A stretch of DNA of 64,000 nt from contig CM082591.2 in NCBI GenBank assembly GCA_040954595.2, positions 3,643,957 through 3,707,956 on the forward strand. The letters are read 5' to 3'. Source of the stretch: Balanoglossus misakiensis (taxonomy: Eukaryota; Animalia; Hemichordata). Position 1 is the stretch's first letter; every line of letters begins with the position of its first letter. The translations under genes and the position numbers were made by a program. A model generated the notes under the pieces. It was not told the origin of the DNA and did not search any database. It was given only the letters and a program-made list of their open reading frames with translations. Positions 18,801 through 58,912 of this stretch are shown one piece after another.

Positions 18801-21800
18801 GCCTTCTCCGCATCGCTGACCAAGATGATGGTTTCGTTGTCCGATTCCACGGCCCGGCCGTCCTCGCTACCCAGCGGCTGCGCCTCATCCATGTTCAACT
18901 TCTTGCGGAAGACGTCGATGACCTCCCCCTCGGGACCGAGCTTCACCGTCTGCGAGGGGCTCAGCTTCTGCGGGGTGAGCACGATGTGGGGCTCCGAGAG
19001 GGAGTAGCCCTGCGCCTTGATCAGCTCGGCGTCGTACTTGGTCAGCTTGGGGTTTCTCTTCTTGCCGTAGCTCGACGCGTAGGACATCCCCCTGTTCCTG
19101 GCGCTGCTTTGGGTGTTGGTGCCTCGGCGGTGGCGGGTCCTGGTGCCAGAACCACTCTCAGAATGTCCTGAAATGAACGCAGACCACCAGAATTAGACAT
19201 GACAGAACACTGGTATTACACAAGTGAACAAATACGACAATGTGGGCACTAAATCAGCTTAGAATTCCCCAGAACAAGGCTGTATAATCATGACAAAATT
19301 GATCCTGGTATTAGACAAGCCAACAAATATGACAAAGAACAATGTGGGCACTAAATCAGCTTAGAATTCCCCTGAACAAGCTGTATAATCACGACAAAAT
19401 TGCACCTCTTTTGGCTGAAAGTTGACACTGTAATGATTGCTTACTTCTTCTAGTGCGACATCTTCCATTGCGCACCGAACCGTTGCTTTTCTTCTTTTCG
19501 CTTTCTCTCTTCATCCGAGACAGCCTGTTATCCGTTTCCCGTAACCTGTATGTCGTTTCGGTCAGTGCATCTTTTTCTGACGTTTCCTTCGGTGTGAAGG
19601 CTCCTGTCTGTCTTCTGCAAAGCGGGAAAGAAGGAAAATTTCTGTAGCTTGCAAGTTTTTGTGTGAGCTAGCAATTTTACCCTGGTGTTGTACGTGCACT
19701 GCGTTGACGTGTAATTCTTCATTTTTGTTTGGCTCCTAAGCAAAACATACAGACATACATCCATACATACAGACGCAACCGATCCCATAAGGTCCCATGG
19801 TACACACCAATGGGACCTAACAACACTTCTTACATAATTAGCTTCTGAAAACCAGGAGACAGATATTTCCTAATTGGTTTAATGCCGGACTCCTCTATGA
19901 CACTAACCAATCAGAAGAACCCACACACACACCTGTAGCTGACTGTGATAATTATCCTATACTACAAAGACATACATTGCCTACATACCTTTCACATGTC
20001 TCACATTCACAATAACAGTTGTCTTCTCCAAAGAATCCATCGCCATAGAAACAAGTGATTTCTTCTCCGGGTTGAATGTCTCGTAAAACCTGCACACATG
20101 CAGTGTCTCTGCCAGTTGACACAAACTGAAGGGAGAGAAACGTATGGTACCATAAACTGTGATATGTGATATGTCATCAGTAAAATATATCTGTGGGTAA
20201 GGCCAGTAGCCATTTCTCATTAACCCTAACGCTGTCGAGTCCGTAGCAGACCGCCCGATTTCCGGTGTGGGTAGAAGTCGGACGTTGGCGAGTGATGAAT
20301 GACCGAATCGGTATGGATCGATATGATTTACCGACCCGCTGGAGTCTCTAGGCGTTTGCGTGCGCTTCGCTATAACGTGTTGACTTTGAACTACCGTTTT
20401 GAGGGCAAAATCTGTTAGGACAGGAAAGTCTCGACAGGGTTATTTGCCTTGAACTACAAAGAGCACACTATCCTAAGAGGCACATTCCGCCGGTCATTCC
20501 CGACCCTGGGGAGACCGTTTTTTTGCGTCCGACAAAAACGTACTTGGCATCGATGCATTGTTTACTACAACAGACGGTTCCACAACGACATAGGGTATCG
20601 ACCTTTTCGATGGCCAGCGGTGTCGCACGCACTCGTGGATAGCACTGTTTGGGAAAGTGCGTTTTGGGATCGACTCGGGAAACATGACGAAATGGTGAAA
20701 TGGGGCCCGCAGAGCTTGCGGGATACCTATGACTGTGTCGGTACAACCCTGTGCCGTAAAAAATTTATAGCGTATTAACACCGTACTGAACGTCAGTTTG
20801 CCGAGCTAAGTAACCAACGTGTCGTTATCACAACGTCCGTGTGTGTCTCGTCTGAAGAAATGAGTCGTTATCACAACGTCCGTGTGTGTCTGGTCTGAAG
20901 AAATGAGTCGTTGTCGGGCGGCTGTAGAGTGGGACACTGTGCGCCAGTGTCTAGTCGTTCGCATTACGTGGCGAACTAACTCGTACCCTACGGGAAAGTG
21001 GCAGGGGAAGGGGTGCCCGAACACCCCTGGCGGTACACCCTGGGTCCCCTACTGACAACTAATGGTGTCGTCGTTGTGACGTGATATGGCGTGTGCTAAC
21101 GCACTAACTTTATTTTCGTAAAAGTAAGCCTCGAAACGACGTTGACAGACGCTCCCCTCCCAGGGGAACGAACCCGATGACCCACAACTTTTACCCGGTT
21201 AATTGTTGTTTGAGGTCCCGTCGACACGGGACTGTGCCAAACTTGAAGTCTAGCACGTTCAAAAGCAGCTAAAATGACCCTCCAAAAACCCGATTTTCAG
21301 GCAAAAACCCTGGTAATCCAGCGGGTGTAGAATGCCGGATTCTACATACACCGAAAAGGAGGCGGTCTCGTAACGACTCGGCAGCCCAACGGGTTTTGAC
21401 CCCCGGTAGCAAGAGGGTTAACAGTTCTGTGCACAGGCGTCTATTGGCAATTTCGTGGCAAACTGTGGCATGTATAACTAATCTAAATGTAACTTTGATC
21501 AGAAAGTATTGTGAGAATGCTCACCTTGCAATTTGGCCGGCAATCTGTAAGAGAAAGGATGGACCGTGTTATTGGTTAAGAATTTAGACTCGTAAAATGA
21601 AGTATTGAGCCTTTTTTCCACTTTAATTTTATCATCTTTGCATGGCTCAAATATAGATTCTGGTGTATTTGGGTTCAGTATGGCAGTTTGAGCCACGACA
21701 CAACTGCACCAAATCTTACCGTGATTGATATAGGAGGCCGGTCCCAGCCACAGCTGTGCACAGTTCTTCCTGGTGGAGTACATGACGCTGAAATCATTCT

Positions 21801-23018
21801 CTCCGTGACGTAGCAGCTGGTTTTCCTCCATTGGAGTCAGCTCCGCGATGCATCCCACAAGAAGCGAGATCTTCTCGTTTCTTGTCCTGGAAGAAGAAAT
21901 TCCAAACACACAGTGAGTCATCACATGTGATATTTTATCCAACTGAACGATAGCATTGGTTAAACTTAAAATTAACAAATTGGTTACTATTGCCAAAAAA
22001 CACTTACCATTCCTTTGTGCTGACAATTTTAGCCCCTTCACCTTCCAGAGAATACCGATGACAAGATTTGATTTCTACGCCCGCTTCATCCGAGAACATC
22101 AATAGATACCTAAATACCTGTTGAAATAAATCAAGTAATATAGATACGTCATGTTTATATGTCTAACATGCTACTTTTTAATATCAAACAAATTTTAAGT
22201 TGATTTATTGTAATCAGCTTTGAAGGAGATGTATCGGTCCTCACAGCCACAAACCCACATTTAGATTACTTAACAAATATCGCAGTATGTGTTATTACTC
22301 ACATGTTCTCTGAATGTGTTCTGTTGGCTCCTTGATTTGTTCATAAAGTACAACCGGTACCAATCTCCCGAAGTCAGCGACTTGAAGGTGGTCTCCAGGG
22401 AAGTTCTCCTCTTGACGTACTTGTCAATGGCTTCCTTCAGTTGTTCTGTTTTAGCAGTAGCCGGACGGAATCTGAAGCGATCAAACAGGCTAAAATGTTA
22501 AAACCCCTTATCCTGTCAACCCTTTCACCACCATGGTTCAGTCCAAATCCATTGTTCTCTATGGTAAGGTTGGACCTCCAAAGAGGGAACTGGGGGTGAA
22601 AGGGTTAAACTGGTTTCATTTCCAAGGGGGCCTAAGCCTGAAATTATGGCACCAAGATCTGTTAACCTGCTAAGTGTTTGTTCCTTAAGTCGGGCTTATA
22701 GAAGAACACACAGCCAAACCAGTGAGATTTAGTGCATATTGGGGGGTTCAAACCGCCAAACATCAAAGACCTCACTATCAAATGCAATGATCACCGATTG
22801 TAATTTGGTATGGTCAATTTTCAAGACCGTTATACAGGGAAATAGGTGCGAAAGGGTTAAAAAGACTCCTACCTGGTATTCATTTTATGAGATGTGAATC
22901 CAAGATACGGATCAACCACCAGACTTGTAGCCAAGTCGTCATTTTCACACAGCTCCTTGGATGTCATTCCTGTACTTGGCGCAAAGCGTGTTGATCCCTG
23001 AAAAGTTTCAATCACCAT
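15899..23018 (-). CDS. KMT5B: Histone H4K20 methyltransferase Suv4-20 (KMT5B/C) with a ~1090 aa terminal exon
   Basis: MVIETF...[31 protein letters not shown] (exon ending 22873). SET-domain exons encode [39 protein letters not shown]|DCRPNCK|[46 protein letters not shown]. The [10 protein letters not shown] exon (~19445-19617) splices in phase to last exon 15899-19167, which contains YDAELI...IPKITIR. Non-coding first exon has its donor at 23923. Confidence 0.95.
19211..19402. repeat. ~95-100 bp tandem duplication in a Suv4-20 intron
   Basis: Two copies of CTGGTATTA.ACAAG...ACAATGTGGGCACTAAATCAGCTTAGAATTCCCC.GAACAAG.CTGTATAATCA.GACAAAATTG. Confidence 0.85.
19651..19821 (-). mobile_element. 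Helentron/DINE-like repeat, copy 3
   Basis: AGGTCCCATGGTACACACCAATGGGACCT hairpin, CATAC microsatellite and GCAAGTTTTTG block shared with copy 1. Confidence 0.55.
20224..21417. mobile_element. 1.19 kb non-autonomous piggyBac-like element in a Suv4-20 intron
   Basis: TTAA at 20220-23 and 21418-21; CCCT...AGGG termini; asymmetric subterminal inverted repeat (GCTGTCGAGTCCGTAGCAGACCGCC vs reverse-complement GCTGCCGAGTCGTTACGAGACCGCC); markedly CpG-rich relative to its flanks; internal 43-bp tandem pair at 20821-20906. Confidence 0.8.
22520..22604. mobile_element. ~85 bp piggyBac-type MITE, copy 2
   Basis: TCAA-CCCTTTCACC...GGTGAAAGGG-TTAA. Confidence 0.8.
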
Positions 23019-26135: not shown

Positions 26136-27005
26136 ATATTTATCAGATTGTTTGTAACTTTCTTGGCAGTCGTAATAAAACTCTAACCAGACAGTGGTTT
26201 CTGGGTGCATGCAAGTTATGAGTGATTGTGAATTTCTCAATGTGGCATACCGGTATACCCCCCCCCCCCCCTTTTCCCATTGTTGCAAGCCATGGACCTA
26301 TAATAAAAGCAACCAATGCGAAAATTCAACTGAGCCAATCAGAAAAGGCCTCTCATGATGACAATAATAGTAAACATATGCTGTACAGAAAATGTATTTT
26401 GAAACAAACAGAAACATCTCTCCACTAAAATGACACAGATAGAAACTATTGTCACAATCTAAAAGCACATGGTAATTCATTATAATATGAAAAGGCATCA
26501 GAATTTCACATCGGGAAATTTCCATACTAGTAGTCCTACATTCTTTGTCCTGTACGGTACACTTTCTAAGATTTACCATATGCCTACATGCGTTGATATT
26601 TATAGTCGGCAGATTGTTGCCATTCTATACAAGCCAGTAATAGATTCAAATCGATTGGATTCCTGGTGGTTCCTAATTCAGAATCGCATAGCTCTGCAGG
26701 ATAGAAATATGTAAATTGCAAATTATTACCAAAAAATTTTGCATGAAATCCATGTTCATATCAGTATTCACAACTTCACATAGGCATAAAAAACTTTCTT
26801 TTTCCTGATTTTATTTTAAAGGCACTACATATCAAAAGGAAACTGACCATTAAATGACTGAAGAGAAACTAAATCATTCCAGATTTGGTTCAGTCATAGT
26901 GTTACTGGGTCCACAATGCTCAAAATCACATACATGATACACTCACAGTCCGGGACAGTGATACATGTAACAATTATTGTTGCAGAGATTGATAGTTTTG
27001 TGTGA

Positions 27006-34336
<7,331 letters not shown>

Positions 34337-34366
34337 CTTGTAGTTCAAAAAAAAAATAATGATTAA

Positions 34367-34549
34367 AGGTACACTGCACCTATGCAAATTTAACCTCTGT
34401 TACCATGGAAAATTCAAATATAGCCAATCACTGATTTTCAGTGGGTGGCACTTACAAAAAAGTGCACCACCACATGGCCGGATTCTAACACTTTGACACG
34501 CCCTTTTGACCATTTATAGCATATGTAAATTAGAGGTGAACGTATACCT
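34367..34549. mobile_element. ~183 bp TTAA-flanked (Kolobok-like) MITE just upstream of the first recognisable MCM9 exon
   Basis: TTAA-AGGTACACTGCACCT ... AGGTGAACGTATACCT-TTGA; reverse-complement homology to 51243-51428. Confidence 0.75.
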
Positions 34550-35835
34550 TTGAGTTCAGACGAAGTGAATTTCTAATTTTCAGCTCTCAGATGCATTGGT
34601 ATTTACGACATGTAAGCGGCATTAAAATTATTTGTTCAAATGCCAGGAGCGCGGACAGAACAGCAAAGTCTACAAAACAGCGCGGCGGGCAGGGCGTCGT
34701 CTTGGCGACCAGAGAATACAGAGAGTCATGATGGATGCCGAATTCTTTACGAGGCTGGCTTTGTCGAGTGGCGTCTCCACATCTGCTCGGAAACCTTTAT
34801 CCTTTCGCTCAAAAAGATTGTCGTTAACTACGCTTGGTTAAGTGCAATTTCCCGTGCAGCGACAGGAACCGTTGAGCAGAGAATCTCGCCGGGTAATGCA
34901 GGCGGCTATAAAGCCATTGCCGTCTTCATGGTTTTTAATCATTTCTCTCCTCTGCTGTACGACGCATTGTGGGCGTTCGCACATTCATACTATTCATTTG
35001 CATGCGGCCGCCAAATTTGATCATTAGTAGCCGGAAATTAACCAAAATTAAGTCTGGGCGCCTCTTCTTTAGTCATATTTTCACCTGGGGACTTCTAAAA
35101 AAATAAAATATCTGCTGGCAGCCATTACTGACATCACTATTCCTTCTCACAAAACTGGACTTGTGAGAGAAGACAAAGGTTGGATCATTTAAACAATAAC
35201 TAGTGTGAACTACATGCACCACAAAACACCCACCCAACATCAACCAACAATTTTACCATCTTTTCAGTTTCCTGCTTTAATACTCATCTCAAAGACCCAC
35301 CCCCCCCCATAAAGGAAATGGTTTGACCGAACAAGCCCGACCAGAAAAAGTGTAGCGCATAACTTGGTTGACGGCGATGTTTGTCGGTGCTACTTGATTT
35401 GTGAACCGCAAAGTGAAAATTAATTTGAGATCCAAATGAGTTGATTCAAGTTCAACCTATGAGTCACATGGCAATGAAAGAATTTAGTTCAATTCGTGCA
35501 TAGTTTGTTCCAGAACCCCTTCGACGCCATAGTCAACTCGTCGCCAATGTTCACAAAATTAACCACATAACTTTTTGCCATATTTTTTTTAAAGTTTTGA
35601 TTGGAACCCACAGACAATGGATAATTATGTCCACTTGGTCTTGGGACGCGTACAGACTTGACATATTTGTAGTTCAGCACATACTGCGCATTTCATTTGA
35701 AACGGATTAGTTTGTACTTATCAGTGTATCTGATATCATGTACACGATGTAAACTGTAAGCTTATAATTGGTTAGATATGAAAATAGAATGGAGGTTTGT
35801 GTGTGTGGATCTGTCTTTCCTAATTTTACCGATAT

Positions 35836-36054
35836 ATCTGTCTGTCTGCATGTCTGTCTATCTCATTGTCTGTGTGTCTGTCTGTCTGCCTTTTCTGTCT
35901 GTTGACTGCATGTCTATCTGTATGTCTGACTGTTTTGTCTGTGTGTCTGCCTGCTTTGTCTGTCTGTGTATCTGTCTGCCTGTCTGTCTGTCTGTCTGTC
36001 CATTTGCCTGCCTGCCTGTCTACTTGCCTGCCTGTCTACCTGCCTATGTTTGTC
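35836..36054. repeat. Degenerate (TCTG/CCTG)n microsatellite
   Basis: Direct reading. Confidence 0.9.
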
Positions 36055-38035
36055 TAAGAGTAAGAATACCAGCATACCCTCTACAATGCTATATGCAAGT
36101 ACAATACTGCTCTGCCTAGCAACTCCACAGACTGGATGAATCATGCACTGATATGATAAACAAGAGGTATGTCCCCATAATTAAGAATCCTTGCCCTTAA
36201 GTGAAGGTCATTAGAGACAACACAAATCATTAGTTTTCTCCTAATTGTTGTATAACATTATATTCAGCTACTTTTCCCTCTCAGTACATACAATGTCACA
36301 ATTCCCTCTCTCATCCTTCCATCGACAAAATTGCATTCCACAATCAACACTGATAACCAGTTGGGGTAGAGGTCAATGCCGTCTGATTCTAAACTGACCT
36401 GGTGTAGATTTTAATTAAAAGCTGGACCACATAACAATTGGACAAAGAAAATGATGGCATTACCGAAAAGTCCATTTTAATGAGGTATGCAAATACACGC
36501 AAGCATATCAAAGTTTACCGAAGATTACACTTTAGTTCATGCTTAGCAACACAGACTTTGTTTTGACGGGTACAGCTTTTGTCCGAAAGTAGCATTTCAA
36601 TGGATACGCTTTTAAAAAGATGCACAAATCCCCAAAATTTGATGCGTATGTATTCCAAACGTCCGTGAGCTCTGTTATGGTTGAGAATGATGTTTGTTCT
36701 TGAGGCAAAAATGTTTTTTTGCCATAACATTACGTATGTTTACTGTCTGAAACACTATGGTTGCCTGACACAGATATAGGCTGGGGTCATTCGTCTACAA
36801 ACCTTCATTTATCATTTCCATATTTCAATATGTTGCTTTGAGCATACTATTACCTTCACAGCATGTTAAAGCAAGACCATGAAGTAGAACATATTTTATA
36901 ATGACAAACAATAAAATTTTACGAACCATAGAATTCCTTCGATATCTGGGAAAAGGTCAATTCGATTAAAAGAATGAGGGGCTTCAGAGTTAGATTGAAA
37001 ACATTATATCATATCTTAGCGTTCTCAATCGCCTGGGAAGTAAAACAAGGTTGTGCACTTGTTGAACTCTCTTCAATTTTCAAATAGTACAGTTTCCCCA
37101 TAAAAAATGTTATCGTCTTGACAACACAGAACTTAATGCTGATGAGGCACTCTTGACATTTGCTCCCATAGCAACCGCAGCATGTCTTGTTTTTAAAATT
37201 AGACAATGATCAAAAACAAATAAACTGTATTTTCCCAATTCGGCGACATCGTCTGGAGCAAACATTTCTGTTTTGTACGGAGTGATCAATCTATTTCTCA
37301 CATTTCCAAATACATAATTCATCACTGGAGTTGAGAAGGAACAGTTTGAATAAAAAAAATCCCTAATATCTGAAGAAAATTTTGTGAACAAGAATTTGTG
37401 ACACAAAAAATGTAACCTGTTACAACAGATGAACATATGCAGCCACGCTAAGTCAATTGGCACACTCTAATACACATACGACATAAAACGATTTTATGAC
37501 ATACTCATAGTTTTATGTTCTTTTTAATAAGTTGATACTACCTTTACAGACTTGTAACAACCGCTAGGTTTGAAGTTGTCATTTGTAGTGTGGTGGCACA
37601 CAGAAATATTTGTCCGTGTTACTTTAAAGGCACACTATCTGTAACTTTTGATAACCATGTTCCACTGAAGGGTGTCTGTCAAATACACTCACATGTAGTC
37701 TAAAAATTCAAACACACTTTTCTTCAGGCAAAAATGTTTGCTAAAATGGGCTATTTTTGCTACATTTCACAATAAATTTGCAACATTTTCATACTTTACA
37801 TAAATTTGCATAGCAGACAAAACAAATACCTTTAAAACATCCACAAATGACGTAAGTAAATTTTAAAAAGATATGGCTGATGTAAAGCAAAGCAGTCAAT
37901 ATAATTCATCAAAGTGATGAAGTTTCTGAAGTTCATGTTCGTTAGAGCGTACAGTGACGTACTACAAGCTGATTTCATCAGCTATGTCTGTTGTGAGTTT
38001 ACAGTTCCGTGAAAATGTGCATATAAAATTTACGT

Positions 38036-40879
38036 CTATCGTGCCTCGTCAAGGCTTGTGAAACTGACAGGTTTGTTGATCTGCACGGCAGCGTCTTTCA
38101 AGATGATGAACCCGCGCCACTTCCGCTTGGTGAAGCTTCTCCAATCGCGGCCGACGACGCAGCACAGCCGGTGGTCCAGGTGCGTCCAGCCGCAGCGGAA
38201 CCCGTTCCAGCGCCGGTGGAAAACCTGCAGGCTCTGCGACACCACCTGCGATCGGGTGATCGTGGACGAGGACTCCCGGGGGAAGTCGACGAGGGAGTCG
38301 TCGCGGCTCAGCAACGACGGCGGCGGCGGCCGATTATTCAGCGAGATGCCGTTCAGAAACTGGTGGAAGTTCTCCATGTCCTCCACGTACGTCTTCCAGT
38401 GCCTGGCCCGCTTTTTCCAGCTCTCCCCGAACTTTGCCGCCAGAGCGCGCTCCAGGTGCTTCCATCGACCGGGGAACTCTTCCCACTTCTTGGAAAACTC
38501 CCGTATCACAGCCGAGACAGCTTCGCCCGGATTGGACTTATCCGCCAGCAAAATCCTGCTCAGGAAAATATCGTAGAGAATGTGTTGACGGATGTATTCC
38601 TGCCACTCTTGGCCGGCATAACTTCTCCAGTTTATGCCGATTTTACGGATCAGGTAGCCATCCAACTGATTCCAGCCATCCGGTATATCTTCCCACCGCC
38701 AGGCGAAATTCAGCAAGGCTGTCCTGACAGCTTTCCGTCGCGCCAGCTGATCATTCGGGAAAGAGTAGTTCCGGAGTTCTTTCATGTGCAACTGGACGTG
38801 GGGGATGGTGTCTAAAAACCCCTGGAATGTTGACTGGGACATCTTCAAAGAACGCGCTGTCACTGAATTCTTTATGATCACTGACACACAGTGATATGCT
38901 CAAGGACGAAAAACCTTGGTACGATAACGCAATATCATGGTATCATGTCAACAGCAGATACATCCAGAATGATATTGTTTTGTAGATAAGAATGCTTTTC
39001 TAGCCAGTACAGTATCTGCCAGACTTGTGCAAATAACAATATTACCTAGATTAGTGCTATCACAAAGCCGATTCTGCTTCGATACTGGTGGTACGCGCAT
39101 TAACACCGTCAACCCATTCGCAGTCCACAACGAAACTATCCAGGACGGACGTCAACAAAGTGTATATATGAACCAATCTGACATTATTAATTCCCCACTA
39201 AGTGCTTGTCGAGTGCTTTGACATGACTCGAGGACGGAAGCTGATAAAAAGTCACAAATCAAACTTTTGAAACCGTCACTACACCGGCAAGGTGCATGTG
39301 TACCTTTTTTTCTCCCTTGAAGGACTCCCACTGAACTCCCTGATTAGGTGTATCAGACTAGTCGTGTAGTGATACAATGCAGTTGACAAGCAAAGCACAG
39401 CTACCAGCCTGTATCCAGGCAACTTATATTAATGAGCAATAAATCTCAACGGCATTCTAAGACTGAGGCGGGGTTTTATGCAACAAAGAGGGGAGTTTAT
39501 GCCTGGGTTCGGACATTCGAGAAATGTAATAAATACTATCAAAGCCCATAGACACTGTAGACCTGTATTTTGAAAGCACTGACAATAAATGAATGGATCT
39601 GACTCAGTGATTCTGAGTGCTTGCATCTAAGCCAGGTGCATTTTTCTTTTTAAGGGGGCATGGCAGCTGGGGGGGGGGGGAGGTAGTCAACTTCATGAAA
39701 GACCTTCCTGAATTAGACTATTGGCATCAGCATTTGTAGTAGGCACTGTGACTAATGCAAAATGCATGTATTTATAATTATATTATACCAGTATATTGAT
39801 GGTGTAAATCACGCTATTTGATTGGTCGAGACACGACACGTGACCGTGATATATTAGCCATATACCACAGTCATAATGCACGCAAAACTCATAGTCAAAG
39901 AAAATGCCTTTTTAAAATGTTTTATGCAAAGTTTCAATATACTGGTATAATATAATAGCAATAAAACACCCCCAGCCATGGTATACCACTCGATTTTGAC
40001 CAGTTGAACTCCATATACGCACTCGCTATCGCTCGTGCGTATATGTCGTGAACTGGTCAAAATCTCGTGGTATACCATGGCTGGGGGTGTTTTATTGCTT
40101 AAATAGCAGTAAAGTTGTTTCAATCAAAATTTTGTATGCTGACTTGGGATTTTTTTCTCAGTTGTCTAAGGGACAGGATTACACTCCATCGCCAGTTGAG
40201 CTTCTAGTTGTATTGTGTTTTTGTGTTCAGGTCAGTTATTATGATCTGTGCTCAACTTCAATCTTTCTTTTGTTTTTAATTGACAGAAGAGAAGTTTAAT
40301 TCCACCTCATGGGGGCGCTATCCTCAACCATAATAACCAATATGATGATACTGAGAGAGACATCAGTTTGTCTTCAATTGCTTAGTCCATGCAGGTTTCC
40401 CCACGGATACTGATAGGGAAACCTGCATACAAATAGTCGTGTCCCCACAACTACGTTTTCACCACCCCCCGGCCCCCTCCCCAAATGTACCCTCGTCCAC
40501 AGTTTCTCCACACACCATGCCTTGACCAATGACACGTCGATCGATGACCGATGTCTTAATAACACAGTTTTTACCACGTTTTCACTCATAGTCTGGTACC
40601 ATTGATCATTATCACGGTCCCATACTTGTAAAATGTATGACCTCGATTTCAGGGGGGGGGGTAGCTCTGCGTACAGGTCTGTACGCAGGGTTGGGGGCAT
40701 GTTTCGGAACGTACCCGTACCTAAGGCAACAGGGCCAGGAGTGTATACAGTTACCATGGTGACGTGATAGGTAGACACAAAATTGACGTAATTAGCGTTT
40801 TCATCACCATAGGGTACTCACCCGTGTACTCTTCTATTTCGCCCGCACTCAACTCGTCCACGGCGTTGCTCGTCGCCAT
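38036..40879 (-). CDS. Unrecognised Trp-rich protein with three ~65-90 aa repeats; main exon 38036-38880, putative first exon 40822-40879
   Basis: GC-rich 280-codon open frame in AT-rich surroundings, with a clear internal repeat. The upstream exon ATG GCG ACG...TAC ACG G|GTGAGT (phase 1) is compatible with the acceptor TGTCAG|TG at 38880. Alternative start at ATG 38843. Confidence 0.7.
39781..40099. mobile_element. Double inverted-repeat element, possibly a non-autonomous Crypton-type or fold-back element
   Basis: 19-bp IR at 39781-39799/39934-39952, followed by a 143-bp palindrome at 39957-40099 centred on CACTCGCTATCGCTCGTG. Confidence 0.6.
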
Positions 40880-41190
40880 TTCAAATTTCCCGCAAAGCAA
40901 GCCTGGCGTCTAATACATGTATGCGTACTCAACTTCGTTATATATTTCTCACTTCAATGATACCTTGGCAAACTCAGCCTGGCTTACGTAAACTTTACGC
41001 TTGGTTCCAGCCGCAGAATTCTTGAAATGTCCAAAGCCACCTCGTAGGCCACCTAGTAGGCATACACGATATATAGTAAAGGATCTTGAAAACTACCTAC
41101 GGCGGCGGCCATTCTTGTTGATGCAAACATGAACTTTGACCCTTAGCGATGATTTCAATCTATCACATATATGTATATGCAATCTTATTC

Positions 41191-41272
41191 AAATCAGATG
41201 TAGGGAACGGCGACGTGGTAGTGTGAGGCGACAGCAGAAAAAAACCACGTCGCCGTTCCCTACATCTGATTT
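41191..41272. repeat. Perfect 29-bp stem / 24-nt loop hairpin
   Basis: AAATCAGATGTAGGGAACGGCGACGTGGT and ACCACGTCGCCGTTCCCTACATCTGATTT. Confidence 0.9.
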
Positions 41273-41316
41273 TAATCAGATTGATGTATATGTATCAGGG
41301 CTATTGTAAACTTTAA

Positions 41317-41892
41317 AGGTCTCATGCCATGCCCTATACAACCACGCGTAAAATCACTATTTGGGTCTTGAAGTTAACGTATGTTACTATCTTGCAATGC
41401 GTTTTGCCCCTTGTGCTTAGATAACAAGCAAGTAAAAGTGGCGGGTGGGCGTGTACCCCTAACCCAACTCAGTCGAGTTTTTTCGGCTTTTCGAAGTTCA
41501 GTCGAAGACTTATCTTGATGTGGACAAATAGTCTTTCACACCTTCGTAAATCCTCTGCCTGTAATGTGAGGCAAGGGCTTCCTTTGCTTTGAACACTGTT
41601 TATATAGCTTGTCTTTGTCTGTGGACTTAATTACTCATGGACTGCTAATTACACTTTACTGTTAGCAGAATGGTACACTAGGACGTAGTGTACTTGTTTG
41701 TCCATATGCAAATACCTTCGCCTGGCTCGAGTGCGAAGTGGCTCCCTGATCACAGGCATGAAAAAAGGTGGCAAATTCCGGCATTCGTGCACATTTTTCA
41801 GAACCGACACAATAGGCAATGCATAGACAGGTACCCTAGGTGAGCTTTTGACGTGGAAAAATGAAAACTTTCCAAAGCATGACATGAGACCT
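41317..41892. mobile_element. 576 bp non-autonomous Kolobok-like DNA transposon
   Basis: TTAA-AGGTCTCATGCCATGC ... GCATGACATGAGACCT-TTAA. Confidence 0.8.
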
Positions 41893-43650
41893 TTAAGCAA
41901 CATGTCTGCAACGAGAACAGAAATAGCATTTACCCTAAACTGAGCATCCGTTTCGTTTGTGTAATATGGAGGATGTATTACTGTGACATACTAGTAGTAC
42001 AGTATACTTGAATCGAAATAACAGGTGCGTCTTTGGAACAATACAGGTGTTATAATGGTGGATACGCCGAGCCCCACCCCCTCACCCCAAACCCCACCCC
42101 GAGAAAAACTGGAATTATTGCATAACACGCTTTCATTTGCGTATAAATTTTATTCCGATACCAAGAAATATTGTGTAACGGAACTCCAAATATAACGGCA
42201 GCGGATGTTTCATAATTAAATTTACCTCTTTAATTGGCTTCTTGGTCGGAAAACAACATGTTTAAATTATTTATACGGCAACATATTACTGGTACATTAG
42301 AATTTTTAAAAACGTGTATCTGAAAATTTATACGGATATTAGAAATAACGGCAAAGGCTTATTTGTTGAAAAGAAGAATTTATGGATTCAGGCAGGCTCC
42401 GGGAGATTTTTGTTCTATGTATGAAGATTGAAGTACGGTTTCTTGTTCAGCGACAGCTGGATTAATTTACTTCCCCTTCATGCTATTTCTAGACTAGATG
42501 TCAAAATGAAATTGCTGTGACGTCAGCTTATTTTGATTGAACAATCACACCTGTTGGGAATATGGCGGGAGAGTACTCGACCGGATTTCTGTGCTCGATT
42601 GCTGTTAATGTACAAGCCAAGGTAGATCCACCCTTACATGGATTCTGGACGACAATTCACCTTCCAGAACACAGAAACTTGGACCACGTGGTGGTGGAGT
42701 GTGTGTGAGAGGGAGGATGTGTGGGGTGTGGGGGGGGGTGGATCAATCGCATTTCTCAACTGACAACCTGCATTTTCATTTGTCAAAATTTATGAATCAT
42801 TCAAGAGGTTCCTAAGCAATTATTCATGACAAAGCACGGTTGCGTAAATTGAAAATTGTATAAAACGGGCCCTTATTTGCTTAATGTTTGCATGCGATTT
42901 GTATACATATTTGAATCCGTGGAAAGTTCCCACAAGATGTATAGATTATACTTTGCTTCATCGGTTATTGATAAAAAAACAATGAAATCTAAGCCTTTTT
43001 CATCATGTATTGAGCAAGTCGATAAAAAATTACTGCAACGTAGAAGTACATAGAATGAAGTGTGACAATTTTTATTACAACTCTTAGTTTAATAACCAAT
43101 TCATCAAGTTTTCATTAATATAGGCCTACATCAACACTAGGATCTATTACCACAGGCAATTTACAATCTGTTAATTAATACAGCCTTGATATTCATTAAA
43201 AAGTAAATTCTGTTGTTTGAAATATTTAATATGCACAAAATGAAGAAGGGCACCTGCATCTTTTTGGCTGCTGCATCAAATTAGAATTTTTGGCAGGCAA
43301 CATATTTCTGCTCGGCGCGGCTTAATTCAGTGTTGTTTACAAGTTATCGACGGGCTGAGAAGATATTATTTTGAAAGTAAACATACAATCTGTGATTATT
43401 TTTTCCAGAATGGTACGTGTATGCTGAAATCCACAGATATATCGACCATACAGCTTTCCCTGGTTCTTGCAATTACTATACGAAAAGCCTGCTGTTAATT
43501 TTAATTTGACTTATGTAATATGCATATCAATGACGTCAGCTTCTAGTTAGATACTAGTACCAAGGCCTAAAAACCTCGAAAAGACAGGGTACCACATCTT
43601 AATAGGAGGGAAATTTATGCGTGAATTTTGAACACAATAATTACCGCTGG

Positions 43651-43760
43651 TCTATAAAACCCCTACTTTGAAACAAACATAGTTGGTGTAACTTGGTACA
43701 TCGACAAAGTCGTTTGTTCGACTTTCACAATCTGCTTGATAGACGACGGCGAAAACGAAG
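43651..43760 (+). promoter_or_regulatory. TATA box and non-coding first exon of subtilisin copy 1
   Basis: CTATAAAA at 43651; donor AAG|GTATGT at 43760; both conserved in the paralog at 57888-58003. Confidence 0.7.
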
Positions 43761-44335
43761 GTATGTTTCTTGAAGCTTACACTATTCGGTAGAGCTAGTC
43801 TCACACGAGTGTTGAACTACATTCAACTTGAGTGTGGAACTACATTCAACTTGAACTACACTCACTGTAACAATCAAATAATGGAGCGAAGACTTTTTGT
43901 ACAATTTTAATAATGCTACACTTTTGAAAAAAAATTAGGTACAATTTTGTACGTCGACACAAAGTCTCTCTTTTTCAACCCCCACCACCTGCTTGATACA
44001 AGCATTCGGTAAGGTTATTTGCATACCAAACAAAAGTGACAATGTATACGTAACTGCTTTCAAACTTGGGACATAAAGAGTTGTAAGAAGCAAAATCTGC
44101 GGCAAGACTAAAATGTATTTTACAGGGGACATGCTGTGGATGTGTACAGAAGTACCTTGTCGATAAGACCTGTCGAAATTTGATTACAGAAATAACATTT
44201 TTCCGAATATTTTTGTTCTCTCTTTGAATGCTATTAAATTTCAGAAAGTATATTAATTCATTAATTGCAGTATGTCTGTCTTCAAAACTGCGTTTTTATA
44301 AGACTTTATATGACATTATGGCATTTCAGGCGATC

Positions 44336-45268
44336 ATGATCACATCGCGATCCACGGCGATTTGGTTTTGCATGTTTGCATTACTTGTGGTGCAGATCAC
44401 AGCTGCCAGCACAAACAAGAGAAAGATTGAGGAAGAGCGAAGGATCCGTGCACTGCGTCCAAGCTTCGTCAAACGTGAACATCAAGCTCCACTGATTCCC
44501 GGTGGAGACGAGAAGATAGAAGAAGAATACATTGTAAAACTAAGGGTGGGTAGAAGTTCTGGTGAACACACATGTCTCCCACTTTGCTGTGTTAAAAAGG
44601 CCATATGTTTACAGCTGACTCTATGTTTCCAGATAAGCAATGCCGTCCACAGACAATCAAAACATTCTCTATATATTTCTATAGAATTATCCACTTCTAC
44701 AGGTATGGATGGGCCTTAGTTCTCCCACAGCCTGTATACGGTTCGCTACAAGGCTCTTGACATGTTACACACTGATGAGCCCCCCCATCGCTAGGAGATG
44801 CACCATATGGTGTTGTGCAGACTCGCAGGCCAGGTTTCACTCGGCCATTAAGATCAGTCGTTCAATCCGACAATATGTCTGCGCAGGCAACGAGACGGTC
44901 TGTGAGTCAAGGACTGACCTATAAATCCAAGTCGAATGAACAACTAGTGACTTACAACACTTATCACTTGATTTGCAACACTTCGCACAATCAATACATA
45001 TTATCTCATTTCACTCAGGACGACCTTACCGATGAAGAATTAGGCGAATTCGAAGACAAATTTCAAGCACTTTCTGAAGAGCATGGCTGGCACATTGATT
45101 TTCAAATAAATGTGACACAATTGATGAAAGGGTTTGTCGCCAGAATACCCAGTGGAGCAGTTGATATAGTATGTGTGAATTTTGTTGTCATTAATTCCTA
45201 CGGCCATATATGTATGTATGTATGTACATGTATTAATGTATTAATGTATGTGTGTGTGTGTGTGTGTA

Positions 45269-45299
<31 letters not shown>

Positions 45300-48200
45300 A
45301 TGTATGTATGTATGTATGTATGTATGTATGTATGTATGTATGTATGTATGTATGTATGTATGTATGTATGTATGTATGTATGTATGTATGTATGTATGTA
45401 TGTATGTATGTATGTATGTATGTATGTATGTATGTATGTATGTATGTATGTATGTATGTATGTATGTATGTATGTATGTATGTATGTATGTATGACTGCA
45501 TGCATGCATTTTCGTGCTTGTAGTAATTAATAAAATCCTTTTTTTTCTTTTAGCTCCGTTGGCTGGATGAGGTAGAGTTTGTTGAAGAAGACGAAGTTGT
45601 CCATGGAAATGTAGAGTGGGGTTTGGACAGGATTGATCAGGCAAACCTGCCCTTGAATGACATTTATTCATCATCACCACTAGGTAAGTCAGGGACCTTC
45701 TTTGCAGTTAACCTTACACGCAGGTTGTACGTATTAATTAAGTGTTCGGCGTTGGAAATTTGTTTATTCATATATGACGATCTTCTAAACAATCAATTTT
45801 CGGTAATCATATGTACTACATTTTATTCTTTTAGAAATACCGCTTTTTGCCTTGGTTTCTACTTTTATTCGCCAGCTTGTTCGTTAAATAAATTATTAAC
45901 CAAAGGATTAGACTTAAGTATTCATGTAATCATTTTTTCATTATTCTTATTTTCTGTTCTTCAAAGGGGACGGTAGTGGCGTGAATGTCTTTGTTTTGGA
46001 TACTGGCATACGTTATTCTCACGACGAGTTTGGTGATAGAGCACATTCATTTTTCGATGCATTTTCAGATGGACAAAATGTAAGTTGCTCTATATGTAAT
46101 ACCATTGTCTGTGAAATATATGGTCAAATGAAAACGTCTCCAGCGTTTTATGTTGGACTAAATGTACATATTGTGAGTACATTAGTTTTTTTAAGAAAGA
46201 GGCCTATATTTCCGAGACACAGGTTCAACTTAAACTGTTGCGTCCACTGTATATTAGTTTTGTATTTCTTACAAAATAATATTTGGGCTGCAAAGAACTA
46301 CTTAATTTGCAAAAATGTCTTACCAGTTTCAAACAATTCAGTTAAACACAATATTAAAATTTACAAAATATCAATTGTGTTACTTCATGAAAAGAGACTA
46401 GTAAGGTTTTTCTGTGTTCAAAACACTGTCGTCGTTGGCCCCTATTTGAGAAGATATATGCACTGATAACATTCGTGTGTGTGATATTTATCGTGGACAC
46501 GTGTTTTATACAGGGAAACGACTGTCAAGGACATGGTACTCACTGTGCAGGTACTGTTGGTGGAAGCACTGTTGGTGTTGCACCTGGTGTTACTTTGTAT
46601 TCCGGTCGTGTTTTGGACTGTGGGGGAAGTGGGGCTTACAGCGGCGTTATTGCAGGTGAGTTTACAATTTTACATCGAAATACTTGACAAAATAGAAACA
46701 TTTGAATTTCCGTTTTAATACAAGGTGAACGGCAAACTTAACAGACATCCATAATAGCCGGGTCTTCAACACTTATCCATACAGGTATGGATGCAGTCGC
46801 CGCTTCCAATAAGAAACCAGCAGTTGTCTCCATGTCGCTGGGCGGTGGACGCTCCACATCTACGAATTTGGCAGTCAAACGGTTAACCGAGGCTGGGTAC
46901 ATCGTAGTCGTTGCTGCTGGAAACGAGAATACAGACGCCTGTACCACGTCACCTGCATCGGCTCCTGAGGTATTACATTTGAAGTATGATAAAACAATAA
47001 GTGTAATACTAGTATCTTATGATGTATTACATGCATTCCACGCAGAAAGCCATCGGGCTTACACCGGGATAAATCTTCACTACCCTTCAGCTGTGTCTGT
47101 GTGCATATTACTTACCGAAAACACCAACAATATATGGAGATTTTTGACTTCCGCCATATTGTGACTGACTGCGCTTTACCGACCGCAACACATTCCTTGC
47201 ACATTGAACAGATTCAACTGTATTTATTTGTGAGAAGTTTCTATATTTTCCGACTTCAATTGTACACGTCTAATGCCTCATCAATGTCTGCAGTGCATGA
47301 CTACGCTAAATCAACAATTGTCTGTTACAGGCAATTACAGTGGGAGCTACCGAATCTGATGATGATTTAGCTTCGTATTCTAATTACGGCCCCTGCGTTA
47401 ATATTCTGGCACCCGGAAGTGACGTCAGGAGTGCTTCCTACAGATCAGACTCCAGCTACACCACTCACAGCGGGACCTCGATGGCATGTCCTCATGTTGC
47501 TGGTAAGGGATTGTTCAGTTATGACGACCGGGGTGGCAATTCAAGGGGGTCCTTAATTTGCAGTCTGCGAAAGGAGTGGTCACCAAGTTTTGAATATGGG
47601 CTTGGGAGTCTCCTATTTTTTTCACCAGACAACACACTGAAAAAAAAACATGTATCACAAAACCAGTAACCTTCTTGTGTGAAACTTATGGTTTTATACT
47701 TTAAACAACAATATAAAAACAAAATGAAAGACACATTGAGCCATTTGCAGACAAGAACTATTGCAGTGAGACTGAAGCTGTGGCGAAGATGATATCATCA
47801 AGGAAATAGGGAGCAGTGATGAAATAAGCATTGGTGACATGGAAGATGAAGAAACGGACCAAGCATGCACTGTATACACTAGAAGTGTTTGTTAGTCTGT
47901 CTGTTCCTGTAATATAATTATTTTCTCAACTTTCCCAAGGTGTTGCCGCCCTTCTACTTCAAGCTGATCCATCTCTCACACAAACGACAATGTTAACCAA
48001 GTTGGTGGAAACTGCCCAAACAGGAAAAATCGACCTGTCCAGGTTGGCTCAGAGTTTGAGATCTTCAACACCGAATAAACTTCTAAGTATTGCCCCACTC
48101 GGTGAGTTGAATCATGGTTTGTTTCAATTGGAGCCCTTTACGTCATTGTAATGGACGTGCTCAATTCGGACTCCATCAAGTCAAGTACATTCGCTTAATT

Positions 48201-53243: not shown

Positions 53244-55460
53244 CTACTGTGCAAATACTTTCAGACAGTTATTTCCGTGATCGCTGACCCAAATTTTACT
53301 GTGATGGTCATCACCAGTTACACAGATACCGTAGGGCCCATTGAGTCCATCCTCGTCACGGTCAATGCGACAGACAAACTTCCCTCCGGATTCGTATTTG
53401 ACGATCCTGTTATTTCCTTTGTCTGAGACGTACACATAGCCGTGTTTATCCACAGCCACTCCTCGGGGACGAAAGAACTGACCATCTCCACGTCCTTCAG
53501 AGCCGAATGTATACAGAAAGTGACCATCGCTATCGAACACTTGAATGCGATGGTTACAAGTATCTGATACGTAGACATTGCCTTTGCCGTCAATGCAGAT
53601 AAACCATGGAAGCTGGAACTCGCCGGCTTTCATTCCCTGATTCCCGAATGACTTGACGCGGTTTCCAACTTGGTCGTAGATGTGAATGCAGTGGGCGCCG
53701 TTGTCAACGACGTAAACTGCCCCATTGACGGGACTCACAGCGATACCGACCGGCGTTGCGATTTGCCCCTGACCAAACCGTCTGATTGTTTTGTCATTTA
53801 CATCATAAACAACCACGAGCTTATTTGCTTCATCTGTCATGTAAACGTTACCATCCTGAGATAAGGCAACGTCGTTTGGGAGAGTATTCTGAAAAGATAC
53901 GCATTGAACTACACGCTGCTGGTAGTTTTCGCCCACAGAAAATATTTGCAGCCTGCTGTTGGCGTGATCACAAACAAGAGCATCCTCGTTTCTGGTCATT
54001 TTTATGCCGTATGGACTTCTCAAACGACCAACCTGAGAACCCAGCCCGCCGAAACTAAGCACCAAGCCTTTCTGGGGAACCACTTTAATTCTAGCTGGCG
54101 ATCCCTGTGCCTCTTTCTTGTTCACTGATACTGAAAGTTGGTGCTCCCCTGCGACCTTGGCAGCAGTCGTTAACGTCAGTCCGTTTCCACGGTCGGTCCC
54201 GCCCCTTGCCGGCTGTATGCTGCCGTCGGGTGCCTCCAAGACAGCGTGGACATCTTGTCTTCCAGCGTCCCCAGGCAAAGTCTCTCCGCTGGGAACTAGC
54301 GTGCAAACGATATCCTCGCCCACCCTTGCATGCGCGGGCACATCACTCAGCTTGTACGCATTCGTCAGGACTGCTCCAATGGTCTCCACATTACAGAAGT
54401 CGTCATTCGGCTTGAACTCAATATAGTCATCCTCTACCGGGTCACACTTCGTTTCCACCTTCATCAATTCTTCTATTTTTGCAGCAATTCGGACTTTGGA
54501 CGACATCAACTGCGCCTGGGTCCCGTAATTCGCCACCGTCTCAACATACTCCCTGGCATACGAAAGATCATTTTCTGAGATATCGAGATTTTTCACCTGG
54601 GCGTTCAAGTTCTCTGTTCTCAGGTCATATTCAACCTTCATTTCTTTCAGAAGTTCGTCTCCCCGTTCTCGTATCCGGTTGGTGGTTTCTCTGACAGCGT
54701 TATCGACGTATTCTTTGATTTTTGACTGCTCTCTTTGAAAGCGTGTATCCAAGGATTCCAGTACGACGGCTATCGCCGTCTTACTCTCGTTGGCTTCGGA
54801 TTCTTTCGTTTTTACTCTGTCCATCATGGCGGTCAAATCTCTGGTAAATTCTTCGGCAGCCTCTCTGACACATCTGCATTTATGCTCTGTCACTGGGTGG
54901 TTCCAAGCTGTACACTTCTGGCAGACGGCCTCCTCGCATGTGTCACAGTAGACCTCGATCTCGTAGCTCGGGTGCTTACTGCAGAAAATCGGAGGGTGCA
55001 CTGAAGCCGGGTTGGCGAACTTTGCGGCACGGTATTCGTCCGGGGACAGCGTGCGGTGCGATTTCGTCACGGGGATTTGTCGGTGTGTGGCCACGCAGCT
55101 GCCGCAGAATGCCATCGAGCATTCGATGCAGTGTTTGGCCAGGTCGCCTTGTCCGCAGCCTTCGCATTTCCCGGTGCCTGCCTGCGCTCCTCGGCTCTTG
55201 AACATTTCAAGCAAATCACCGAGGAACACATTGTCCTCGAAGTCCGCCACGCTGCCACCGGGTAGTTCATGTGACCGCCGGCATATCGGACAGGTCACAC
55301 TTACAGCTCCGTTCTTCTCCGCCAGCTTCCCCAGACACGGCTCGCAGAAGCTGTGCAGACAGGGTAGAACCTTTGCAGTCTTGTAACGCTCGGCACAGAT
55401 TCCACACAGGAGAGCATTTTCGCTGAATTCATTGACTTGGGTCGTGTCCTTCGCTGCCAT
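53244..55460 (-). CDS. Intronless TRIM-NHL E3 ligase (RING, 2 B-boxes, coiled coil, filamin, NHL propeller; TRIM2/3/56/71-like), ~738 aa
   Basis: ATG at 55460. RING CGIC...LPCLHSFCEPC...CPICR; B-boxes CEGC..CIEC..C..C..H..H and CSKH..YCDTC..VCQKC..H..H; filamin GEHQLSVSV..GSP; about six NHL repeats (F..P.G..VD..G..YVSD..N.RI..F). Confidence 0.95.
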   Translation of the reverse strand: MAAKDTTQVNEFSENALLCGICAERYKTAKVLPCLHSFCEPCLGKLAEKNGAVSVTCPICRRSHELPGGSVADFEDNVFLGDLLEMFKSRGAQAGTGKCEGCGQGDLAKHCIECSMAFCGSCVATHRQIPVTKSHRTLSPDEYRAAKFANPASVHPPIFCSKHPSYEIEVYCDTCEEAVCQKCTAWNHPVTEHKCRCVREAAEEFTRDLTAMMDRVKTKESEANESKTAIAVVLESLDTRFQREQSKIKEYVDNAVRETTNRIRERGDELLKEMKVEYDLRTENLNAQVKNLDISENDLSYAREYVETVANYGTQAQLMSSKVRIAAKIEELMKVETKCDPVEDDYIEFKPNDDFCNVETIGAVLTNAYKLSDVPAHARVGEDIVCTLVPSGETLPGDAGRQDVHAVLEAPDGSIQPARGGTDRGNGLTLTTAAKVAGEHQLSVSVNKKEAQGSPARIKVVPQKGLVLSFGGLGSQVGRLRSPYGIKMTRNEDALVCDHANSRLQIFSVGENYQQRVVQCVSFQNTLPNDVALSQDGNVYMTDEANKLVVVYDVNDKTIRRFGQGQIATPVGIAVSPVNGAVYVVDNGAHCIHIYDQVGNRVKSFGNQGMKAGEFQLPWFICIDGKGNVYVSDTCNHRIQVFDSDGHFLYTFGSEGRGDGQFFRPRGVAVDKHGYVYVSDKGNNRIVKYESGGKFVCRIDRDEDGLNGPYGICVTGDDHHSKIWVSDHGNNCLKVFAQ

Positions 55461-56286: not shown

Positions 56287-58195
56287 TTCCATATTTTGCC
56301 AAACAAATATTTTCAATTTTTATTTTCTGGTTTCTGTGTCAAATCAAATGTCTGTATAGGTCCTATTAACATTTCACCTCAGTACACGAAATGCTTTTTC
56401 ACTCAGGTGTGGTTGGGTTCCCAAATTCTCGTTTTTCAACAAATTCGTCATTGCTGTTGTCTCTAATCCGTGTAAACTCTTCACAGTTTGTCAAATGGCT
56501 ATTTTGTTAAACACATTCTATGCACCAGTAACTTGTTGCATTATAAAAATAAAACCTGGCATTTGCCAACAAAGAAAGCAATTACAGAGTAAATTGAATT
56601 CCCCAGGTAGATTGTCAACAATTTGATGGATTATATGAATGTCATTTTTTTTAAAAAGCATCCCAACAGTTTTCCTTATTTCGCCACCTTGGTGAATAAT
56701 AGCTTTTGGGCGTTACACCAGGGGAACGGTGCTCTATTTTTTTAATGCCACGTCAGAGTAAACGCGCACTAAAGTTTAGCTTGTTTTCTTTAAATAATAA
56801 CAGAATTGCGACTTTCTCCTAAACAAAGGAGATTTTACTCGTTTGTACTGATAAACAAGGTAGGGAACTATTTTTAATTACTCGACATCTCCAGATGATC
56901 ATCTATAAAACATATACAGCTGTTTCAAAAAGTTCCCATTTTTCTATAATTTTAAACTTAATGCCTGTTTCTAATATCCATCATACGCTTTGCCCTTGAA
57001 AAGTATTTTGACATGAGTACCAGTAACATTTTGAGAAACATAAATAATTTTGCTGATATTTTCCAACAAAGAAAAACCAATTACAGGCCACGTACCCGGA
57101 AATGTTGGACGCTTTGACCTCTAGTGAGAAACGTGGATGACTGATGAAACCGTGACCATTCAACTACGCTTTAAAATCTGCAATTTTCTTTTAAATCGAG
57201 GAGTATTCAAGATATATTATTATAGGCGGAAAGTTTGAAGTAGGACGTTTGTTTGTTGGTTAGGTGCGTCCTATACAAGTTTACACCCAATTTGAAGTAC
57301 ATGCGAAACACAATTTTTAAAATCTAAAATGTTTGGGTCAAACTGATCATATACCTAGAATTCCAGTCATAAACAACACATGACTAGGGACCATCTCTTG
57401 GCTATGAAAGTAATCTGATAAATGCCTTTATAATGTGTGAAATACTGTATTTGAATAATTCGCACCCCCACTAGGACTTTGCATAAAAGTTATTTCAAGG
57501 GAAAATTACCACAAATGCAAACAGATTATTGCAATTTCCGTACAATTGATGATTATCCTTCCCAGAACAATTCTATGAGTGTTTTTGAGAAAAAGGTGTT
57601 GATCAAACTATATCAATTTTACAAATTAGTAATTTTCTTGTAAGTGAAACAATACTGCATATTAAACTCCTAAGGTACCCCTGAACCACCACAGCGTCGA
57701 GAATAGGGGATGGGTCAATAACATGAAAGTTGATTGGAGGGGGACAAAAATAGTCAAACTTTCGTGTTGCTGGCGGTGTTGTCAGGATGATTGATTGAAA
57801 CCTTATGATGTATTGAAAAGTCAATTCTGTTTTTGTTGTTGAAATACTTAATATGCATGGAATTAAGACTAAAAATATAGGTCAAACACTATAAAACAAC
57901 TGTTATTCGAAACACCTAGTTAGTGCAACTTGGTACTGCAACAAAGTCTCTTGACAGATCGACTTTCGCCATCTGCTTCACATAAACAGCGGCGGTAACA
58001 AAGGTATGTTTCTTGAAGCTTAAACTATTCGATAAATTTAGTTTCATACTTTTTGAACAAAATTGGCAATGATACTGCTTTGACTGCAAATGTTTTATTA
58101 CAGTATCAAACGTGCAAGTTTCACATTATATGAGATCAACTTAAAAACTTTGTTTCCCTAACAGCTTACCATACATTATTGCATTTCAGACAATC

Positions 58196-58833
58196 ATGAT
58201 CACATCGCGATCCACGGCGATTTGGTTCTGCGTGTTTGCATTACTTGTGGTGCAGATCACAGCTGCCAGCAAAAATAAAAGGAAGATTGAGGAAGAGCGA
58301 AGAATCCGTGCACTGCGTCCGAGCTTCGTCAAACGTGAACATCAAGCTCCACTGATTCCTGCTGGAGACGAGAAGATAGACCAGGAATACATTGTAAAAC
58401 TGAGGGTGAGTATAGATGTTTTGGTGAACACACATTTATCGATTACAGAAAGTATGTTACAGCCATATGTTATTCACAACTGACAGTTGGTTTTCCAATA
58501 AGCAATTCCGCACACATATGTTTAGTATTTACAATTTACATCAGTTTTTTTTTTCAAATAAGCTTTAATATGCCAGCCATTGGAACACTCATTGCATGAT
58601 TTGCAACCACTTCTAACAAACAATATATACTGTTATCTCATTTTATTCAGGACGACATTACTGTTGAAGAACTGGCCGCATTCGAAGTCAAATTCCAAGA
58701 ACTTGCTGAAGAGCATGGCATACATGTGGATTTTCAAATAGATTTGACAAATCTGATGACAGGTTTTGTTGCCAGAATTCCTGGAGACGCAGTTGATATA
58801 GTATGTGCGCATTTCGTTGTTTTCAAAGCCATA

Positions 58834-58912
<79 letters not shown>

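Follow-up and report, generated by a model that had tools for sequence, protein, structure and literature searches.

Within a 64,000-nt stretch of the genome of the acorn worm Balanoglossus misakiensis (contig CM082591.2 of assembly GCA_040954595.2, positions 3,643,957 to 3,707,956; this whole stretch is hereafter called the window), the minus strand probably carries, to judge from sequence analysis, a gene of two exons whose predicted product is a soluble protein of 299 aa; the second exon encodes three tryptophan (Trp)-rich, predicted helical repeats. The repeat is real, unexplained and present in single copy, no second copy of its gene being found in the 64-kb window. We tentatively read it as the product of a two-exon gene in which three diverged, undescribed Trp-rich helical bundles form a putative nucleic-acid- or chromatin-binding protein acting through a basic surface.

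Three diverged Trp-rich units in a single exon

All three repeats lie in coding exon 2 (38036..38880, minus strand; 280 codons and a TAG stop), and residue numbers are counted in its 280-aa product, read from 38878. The original prediction described three aligned Trp-rich units with four invariant Trp each, and the core peptides that it quoted indeed begin at residues 50, 120 and 212. Unit 1 (38591..38827, minus strand; residues 18-96) has its Trp at positions 62, 69, 84 and 92. Unit 2 (38384..38575, minus strand; residues 102-165; Trp 132, 139, 154 and 161) is the most compact and carries a KRAR basic patch at residues 156-159, while unit 3 (38105..38368, minus strand; residues 171-258; Trp 224, 231, 246 and 254) possesses three Cys and the most basic core, with an isoelectric point (pI) of 11.5 as compared to 9.8 for the cores of units 1 and 2. 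One additional Trp, at residue 60, is outside the pattern. When the leading FL motif is included, 12 columns of the alignment do not vary (F L I V F W W L L G W W), and the identity of the other two units to unit 2 is 29% and 24%.

Shuffling and leave-one-out tests both upheld this repeat. The top internal off-diagonal score was 92, as opposed to 30 +/- 5 (maximum 54) for shuffled sequences, none of which (0/500) reached 92, and pairwise local scores between units were 85, 81 and 74. Profiles built with one unit left out assigned that unit 50.2, 39.0 and 36.6 bits, while among 1000 shuffles the highest scores were 11.5, 12.2 and 9.4 bits, respectively. At the nucleotide level, third-codon identity between units is just 0.45-0.50, in a frame that is GC-rich at third codon positions (GC3), and only one DNA-level repeat survives (35 nt, 74%, between units 2 and 3). 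The internal repeat is therefore real and, to judge from these sequence comparisons, old. The earlier suggestion of an old and selected fold receives indirect support from this low third-codon identity, from the 11-14 of 38 core residues common between units and from a moderately confident helical model of the unit (see below); conservation across species was not found in the protein collections searched.

The proposed unit pattern held as well, with a refinement of its boundaries. On both occasions, 13 residues separate the last Trp of one unit from the FL motif that follows, whereas the linker following the FL motif varies (25, 11 and 34 residues in units 1, 2 and 3, respectively), and the unit may thus be permuted relative to the one first drawn. 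In a model of the full exon, the last helix of one unit runs on into the FL motif of the next, and the structural unit may run from the AV/VV helix through the FL motif, in which case one FL helix would be left over at the N-terminus; this permutation is suggested by the fixed and variable spacings together with a low-confidence model. The longest of the linkers belongs to a Pro/Ser-rich segment within unit 3 (38246..38344, minus strand; residues 179-211), which connects the FL motif to the first core helix. It is the region of lowest predicted local distance difference test (pLDDT) score in the full-exon model, has a pI of 4.7 over residues 179-208, and is probably disordered.

Within each unit, the two halves, offset by 22 residues, are themselves weakly alike, their score being reached by 36 of 2000 shuffles. 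A bolder scenario, which we hold to be unlikely, is that a new nucleic-acid-binding helical fold originated in a single acorn-worm lineage, starting from an ancient two-Trp helix-turn motif of ~22 residues that would have been doubled and then tripled to six copies, the N-terminal FL helix completing the last unit to yield a pseudo-threefold, permuted closed assembly.

Gene model and coding signal

The minus-strand frame containing exon 2 is free of stops from 38899 to 38036 (287 codons, ending with TAG at 38036). When the bases of the region were shuffled 2000 times, no stop-free frame of 280 codons or more arose (mean 115, maximum 278). The reading frame is intact; the remaining five frames contain 3-14 stops each. 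Upstream, a predicted coding exon 1 (40822..40879, minus strand) opens with an ATG at 40879 and contributes 19 codons and one base, encoding an acidic N-terminal peptide, and a predicted GT-AG intron of 1941 nt (38881..40821, minus strand) separates the two exons. The 40822-to-38880 splice put forward originally proved to be frame-correct: the last base of exon 1 is 40822, followed by a GTGAGT donor at 40821 and an AG acceptor ending at 38881, in phase 1. Three GT(A/G)AG sites are present between 38881 and 41700, among which the one at 40821 is the sole perfect GTGAGT and the sole one with an in-frame upstream ATG. Alternatively, initiation at an internal ATG at 38842 would yield 268 aa.

A synonymous codon-use score, trained on three neighbouring large exons, amounted to +0.48 bit/codon for exon 1 (18 codons) and +0.39 bit/codon for exon 2. 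GC content rises from 0.28-0.37 downstream of exon 2 to 0.46-0.66 within it. Its GC3 is 0.75, versus 0.49-0.68 in the three neighbouring large exons, and its observed-to-expected CpG ratio (1.02, versus 0.82-1.05) is like theirs; its composition consequently looks native rather than foreign. A candidate polyadenylation signal, ATTAAA (37523..37528, minus strand), follows ~500 nt beyond the stop.

Other features of the locus were also recorded. A possible extra ATG-containing mini-exon of 16 nt (41097-41112, minus strand) would be spliced in frame to an AG at position 40903, adding 13 N-terminal residues, although its donor is weak. Two competing open reading frames (ORFs) were discarded: a 262-aa plus-strand ORF has no Pfam match and mirrors the GC3-rich frame, and a 147-aa ORF (40374-40817) has a codon-use score of -0.12 bit/codon. 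The intron holds nested inverted repeats at 39777-40099 with 23-nt and 49-nt arms, and a hairpin with 40-nt arms (41180-41283) lies just upstream of the gene; we take both to resemble miniature inverted-repeat transposable elements. An Rfam scan of positions 35000-44000 gave no matches.

Absence of detectable relatives

The family was unrecognised at first sight, and it stayed so in searches of Pfam, PHROGs, NCBIfam, PADLOC, protein clusters, phmmer, PDB and Foldseek, which covered annotated or predicted proteins and non-animal DNA. With phmmer, 1.84 billion protein representatives returned two matches and no true relative: both are artefacts, namely 1,800-aa acidic repeat proteins (one of them carrying InlB B-repeat-like domains) the scores of which are summed over 11-14 short stretches. 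Word-based searches of a 5.8-billion-cluster collection confirmed 0 of 562 candidates of near length and, when the aligned units were used to query longer proteins, 0 of 2845. A strong match to a described Pfam domain, which would have spoken against novelty, was not found, the only Pfam match to the whole exon being DUF7032 (expectation value (E) 0.66). In PHROGs nothing exceeded the cut-off (best E 0.16), nor did anything in NCBIfam or PADLOC. PDB sequences gave chance matches only (best E 0.043, ribosomal eL8), bearing in mind that HMMER filters remove most matches above E ~0.1 even in searches at E <= 10. No usable match to the whole exon or to unit 2 came from the ESM Atlas, a result that tells neither absence nor novelty. 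Phages and plasmids searched by tblastn gave no match, and of the 100, 398 and 65 pattern matches to viral, metagenome and prokaryote genome contigs, respectively, none was confirmed. A narrow literature check found no description of this repeat.

A neighbouring gene serves as a control for these negative results. The window contains a single-exon TRIM-NHL gene (53247-55460, minus strand; 738 aa) of an enteropneust-expanded family, and all 31 of its matches at E <= 1e-100 are enteropneust (23 from Ptychodera flava, 7 from Glandiceps talaboti and 1 from Saccoglossus kowalevskii), the best identity being 51%, to Ptychodera flava; they point to a host that is probably an acorn worm distinct from these three species. 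Proteins of three acorn-worm species are thus present in the 5.8-billion-cluster collection and, we infer, also in the 1.84-billion library, which is described as drawn from the same 15 billion proteins. Neither the exact single-exon product nor the exact TRIM neighbour is in the protein collection, indicating that the annotation of the source genome itself is probably absent from it. The repeat gene is either lineage-restricted or diverged past recognition.

One could also envision the exon as a relic, decaying or without expression and derived for instance from a retrocopy, a transposon or a virus, that no longer yields a functional protein. The confinement of all repeats to one GC-rich exon, the failure to detect an orthologue and the lack of a second copy in the window would all fit with such an origin. 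Against it stand the 280 codons free of stops and frameshifts, the retention of all 12 Trp positions, the predicted phase-correct upstream exon across a 1.9-kb intron, and the lack of matches in the phage, plasmid, viral, metagenome and prokaryote genome collections; furthermore, no terminal repeats bracketing exon 2 were found. We regard a relic as improbable.

Comparison with known helical families

More plausible, if still unlikely, is that the repeat belongs to a known helical family (HMG-box/CHDNT, Myb/SANT, death fold or a DEPDC5 sub-domain) but has diverged so far that existing models miss it in under-sampled animals. CHDNT (PF08073) is the only Pfam match with a link to nucleic acids (E 0.057-0.1; 12.9-13.7 bits versus a cut-off of 27): a 22-residue stretch of unit 2 resembles positions 28-49 of the 54-position profile, likewise consisting of basic helices with a core Trp, whereas units 1 and 3 do not match. 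We presume that CHDNT corresponds to the HMG box-like domain of CHD4. One study reports such a domain in the CHD4 N-terminus, with DNA binding in vitro (PMC6868358). No HMG_box match was obtained in Pfam for the whole exon or for ten fragments of it. The HMG box is an L-shaped fold of three helices, while our unit model has five. A single viral HMG-box protein was encountered in the Foldseek comparison (E 5.4, TM 0.26; unit model of pLDDT 70 built on 3 sequences).

The second lead concerns unit 3, where a segment (38063-38269, minus strand) weakly aligns with DEPDC5 at 736-749 and 899-957, the latter over ~60 residues. This match involves a single chain (E 0.57), with stretches scoring 4-6 bits, and the DEPDC5/Iml1 sub-domain was not listed for units 1 and 2 or for either profile. 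For Myb/SANT and the death fold, the Trp patterns of which we presume to be similar, there was no match in Pfam or among PDB sequences at E <= 10, subject to the HMMER filtering mentioned above. A diverged known family is made more credible by the possibility, raised in one study, that Pfam models under-represent or miss divergent domains in under-sampled, non-model animals (PMC8662601). However, profiles of the three units recovered no HMG-box/CHDNT, Myb/SANT, death-fold or DEPDC5 protein from 177,635 PDB sequences at E <= 10, and each lead is confined to one of the three units.

Predicted structure and possible functions

Exon 2 folded alone gave an all-helical model with a pLDDT of 42. In order to model the unit, unit 2 with its flanks (residues 96-180) was folded on an alignment to the two remaining units, which produced a moderately confident model (pLDDT 69.7; predicted template-modelling score 0.54) of five helices (model positions 2-17, 22-39, 43-55, 59-62 and 66-83). 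Of the four Trp, one is placed where the second helix ends and the others where the third, fourth and fifth helices start; we presume that all of them are buried in the unit core. Foldseek comparison of this model with PDB and viral models returned no matches at E <= 0.001, and in a wide structural search no HMG-box, cullin, Myb or death-fold entry was among the matches listed, which does not amount to exclusion. With significant internal repeats and a predicted helical structure, the protein falls into the broad class of tandem alpha-helical repeat proteins; it is an undescribed repeat belonging to this known class.

One possible function is that of a scaffold, the three units stacking into a short alpha-solenoid-like surface that binds proteins as HEAT, exocyst or cullin repeats do. 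Most of the structural neighbours are protein-binding stacks, including the C-terminal domains (2d2s) of Exo84, an exocyst/CATCHR helical rod, and HEAT/ARM proteins, besides the designed repeats DHR14 and DHR54. Their scores are at the background of helical models, identity is 4-17% and no sequence match exists; moreover, our protein differs from such stacks in having only three units, uneven linkers and four invariant Trp per unit. Cullin repeats are five-helix repeats in triplicate, and chains of cullin ligases account for 5 of the 8 top Foldseek matches of the low-confidence whole-exon model. Nevertheless, the Cullin family (Pfam PF00888) was not matched in Pfam, and solved cullins were not matched by sequence in PDB searches. 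A presumed structural link between Exo84 and cullin repeats was not found in the literature searched. Given the patchy charge of the protein and its mostly protein-binding structural neighbours, we consider a scaffold possible, nearly as likely as nucleic-acid binding.

The original suggestion that the protein binds nucleic acids or lipids remains conjectural, although its two parts fare differently. The 280-aa product has 45 Lys and Arg versus 29 Asp and Glu (pI 10.0), a charge that fits putative binding to nucleic acid. Lys, Arg or His occupies two alignment columns in all three units and nine more in two of three, several of them adjoining a Trp, and one K-(K/R)-x-(K/R) patch is present. 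The weak CHDNT match of unit 2, although at chance level, leans in the same direction. Lipid binding is less likely, since no membrane segment was found in exon 2 (highest 19-residue hydropathy 0.72). Trp/Arg-rich amphipathic helices could still attach to anionic lipids or membranes as in the tryptophan-rich antigens (TRAgs) of Plasmodium: the protein is basic and its helices are moderately amphipathic (hydrophobic moment 0.12-0.52). As reported for one TRAg domain, which binds sulfatide, positionally conserved Trp lie buried within a helical bundle that bears basic patches (PMC10502043). That bundle is described there as a single extended three-helix, BAR-like one, as opposed to the five shorter helices of our unit model. 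TRAgs also differ in being surface proteins encoded by a multigene family; neither a sequence nor a fold match to them was listed, their Trp/Thr-rich domain has no Pfam match here, and the resemblance is no more than an analogy. Exon 2 has no signal- or membrane-type hydrophobic segment either, and the predicted exon-1 peptide is acidic. Lipid or membrane binding is a doubtful prospect, on a par with the relic.

Several observations weigh against our main reading, a gene for an undescribed bundle that binds nucleic acid or chromatin. The basic charge is patchy, several helices being neutral or acidic (D1 -1, A2 -1, D2 -2); the CHDNT score is half of the cut-off, at chance level, and was seen in one of three units (unit 2); and most structural neighbours are helical stacks that bind proteins, or designed helical repeats, rather than DNA-binding folds. 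The model of the whole exon is of poor quality, and that of the unit was built on 3 sequences only. The opposite-strand mirror frame scores +0.36 bit/codon for codon use despite its 7 stops, nearly as high as exon 2, so that the codon-use score is largely a GC3 effect. Finally, no orthologue against which selection could be gauged was found among the 1.84 billion representatives.

Binding to nucleic acids or chromatin is still the reading that we tentatively favour. The Trp residues would pack the bundle core and fix helix crossings, while the Lys and Arg next to them would point outward, and three successive units would allow multivalent, probably sequence-tolerant binding to polyanions. The acidic exon-1 peptide and the Pro/Ser-rich linker may be flexible regulatory parts of a protein expected to be soluble and intracellular, and two old internal duplications may have given rise to the gene.

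Neighbouring genes

Pfam matches place the repeat gene between a gene with an MCM P-loop on the same strand and a subtilase gene on the opposite strand. The former, a multi-exon MCM-family helicase gene that we presume to be MCM9-like, spans positions ~27000-34900 of the window (minus strand) and starts ~3 kb downstream of the repeat gene. The subtilase gene (Pfam S8; 44228-47700, plus strand) is accompanied by a second, related prodomain-like exon (58600-59115, plus strand). Regions upstream of the gene and of this exon (43652-43823 and 57889-58064) are 74% alike and each copy is followed by a tetranucleotide microsatellite; sequence comparison suggests that the gene and the related exon are tandem paralogues. 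Farther away, a low-complexity exon of 1097 codons (15899-19192, minus strand) has a SET-domain-like upstream exon near 21499-22074; we assume that the two probably belong to a KMT5B/SUV4-20-like gene, the C-terminal exon of which would be very long.

Significance

To our knowledge, orphan genes of animals are mostly short or disordered, and well-formed, internally triplicated globular domains without relatives are uncommon among them. If expressed, the gene described here would add a new repeat family and offer a tractable example of a folded domain arising, or diverging past recognition, in one deuterostome lineage.
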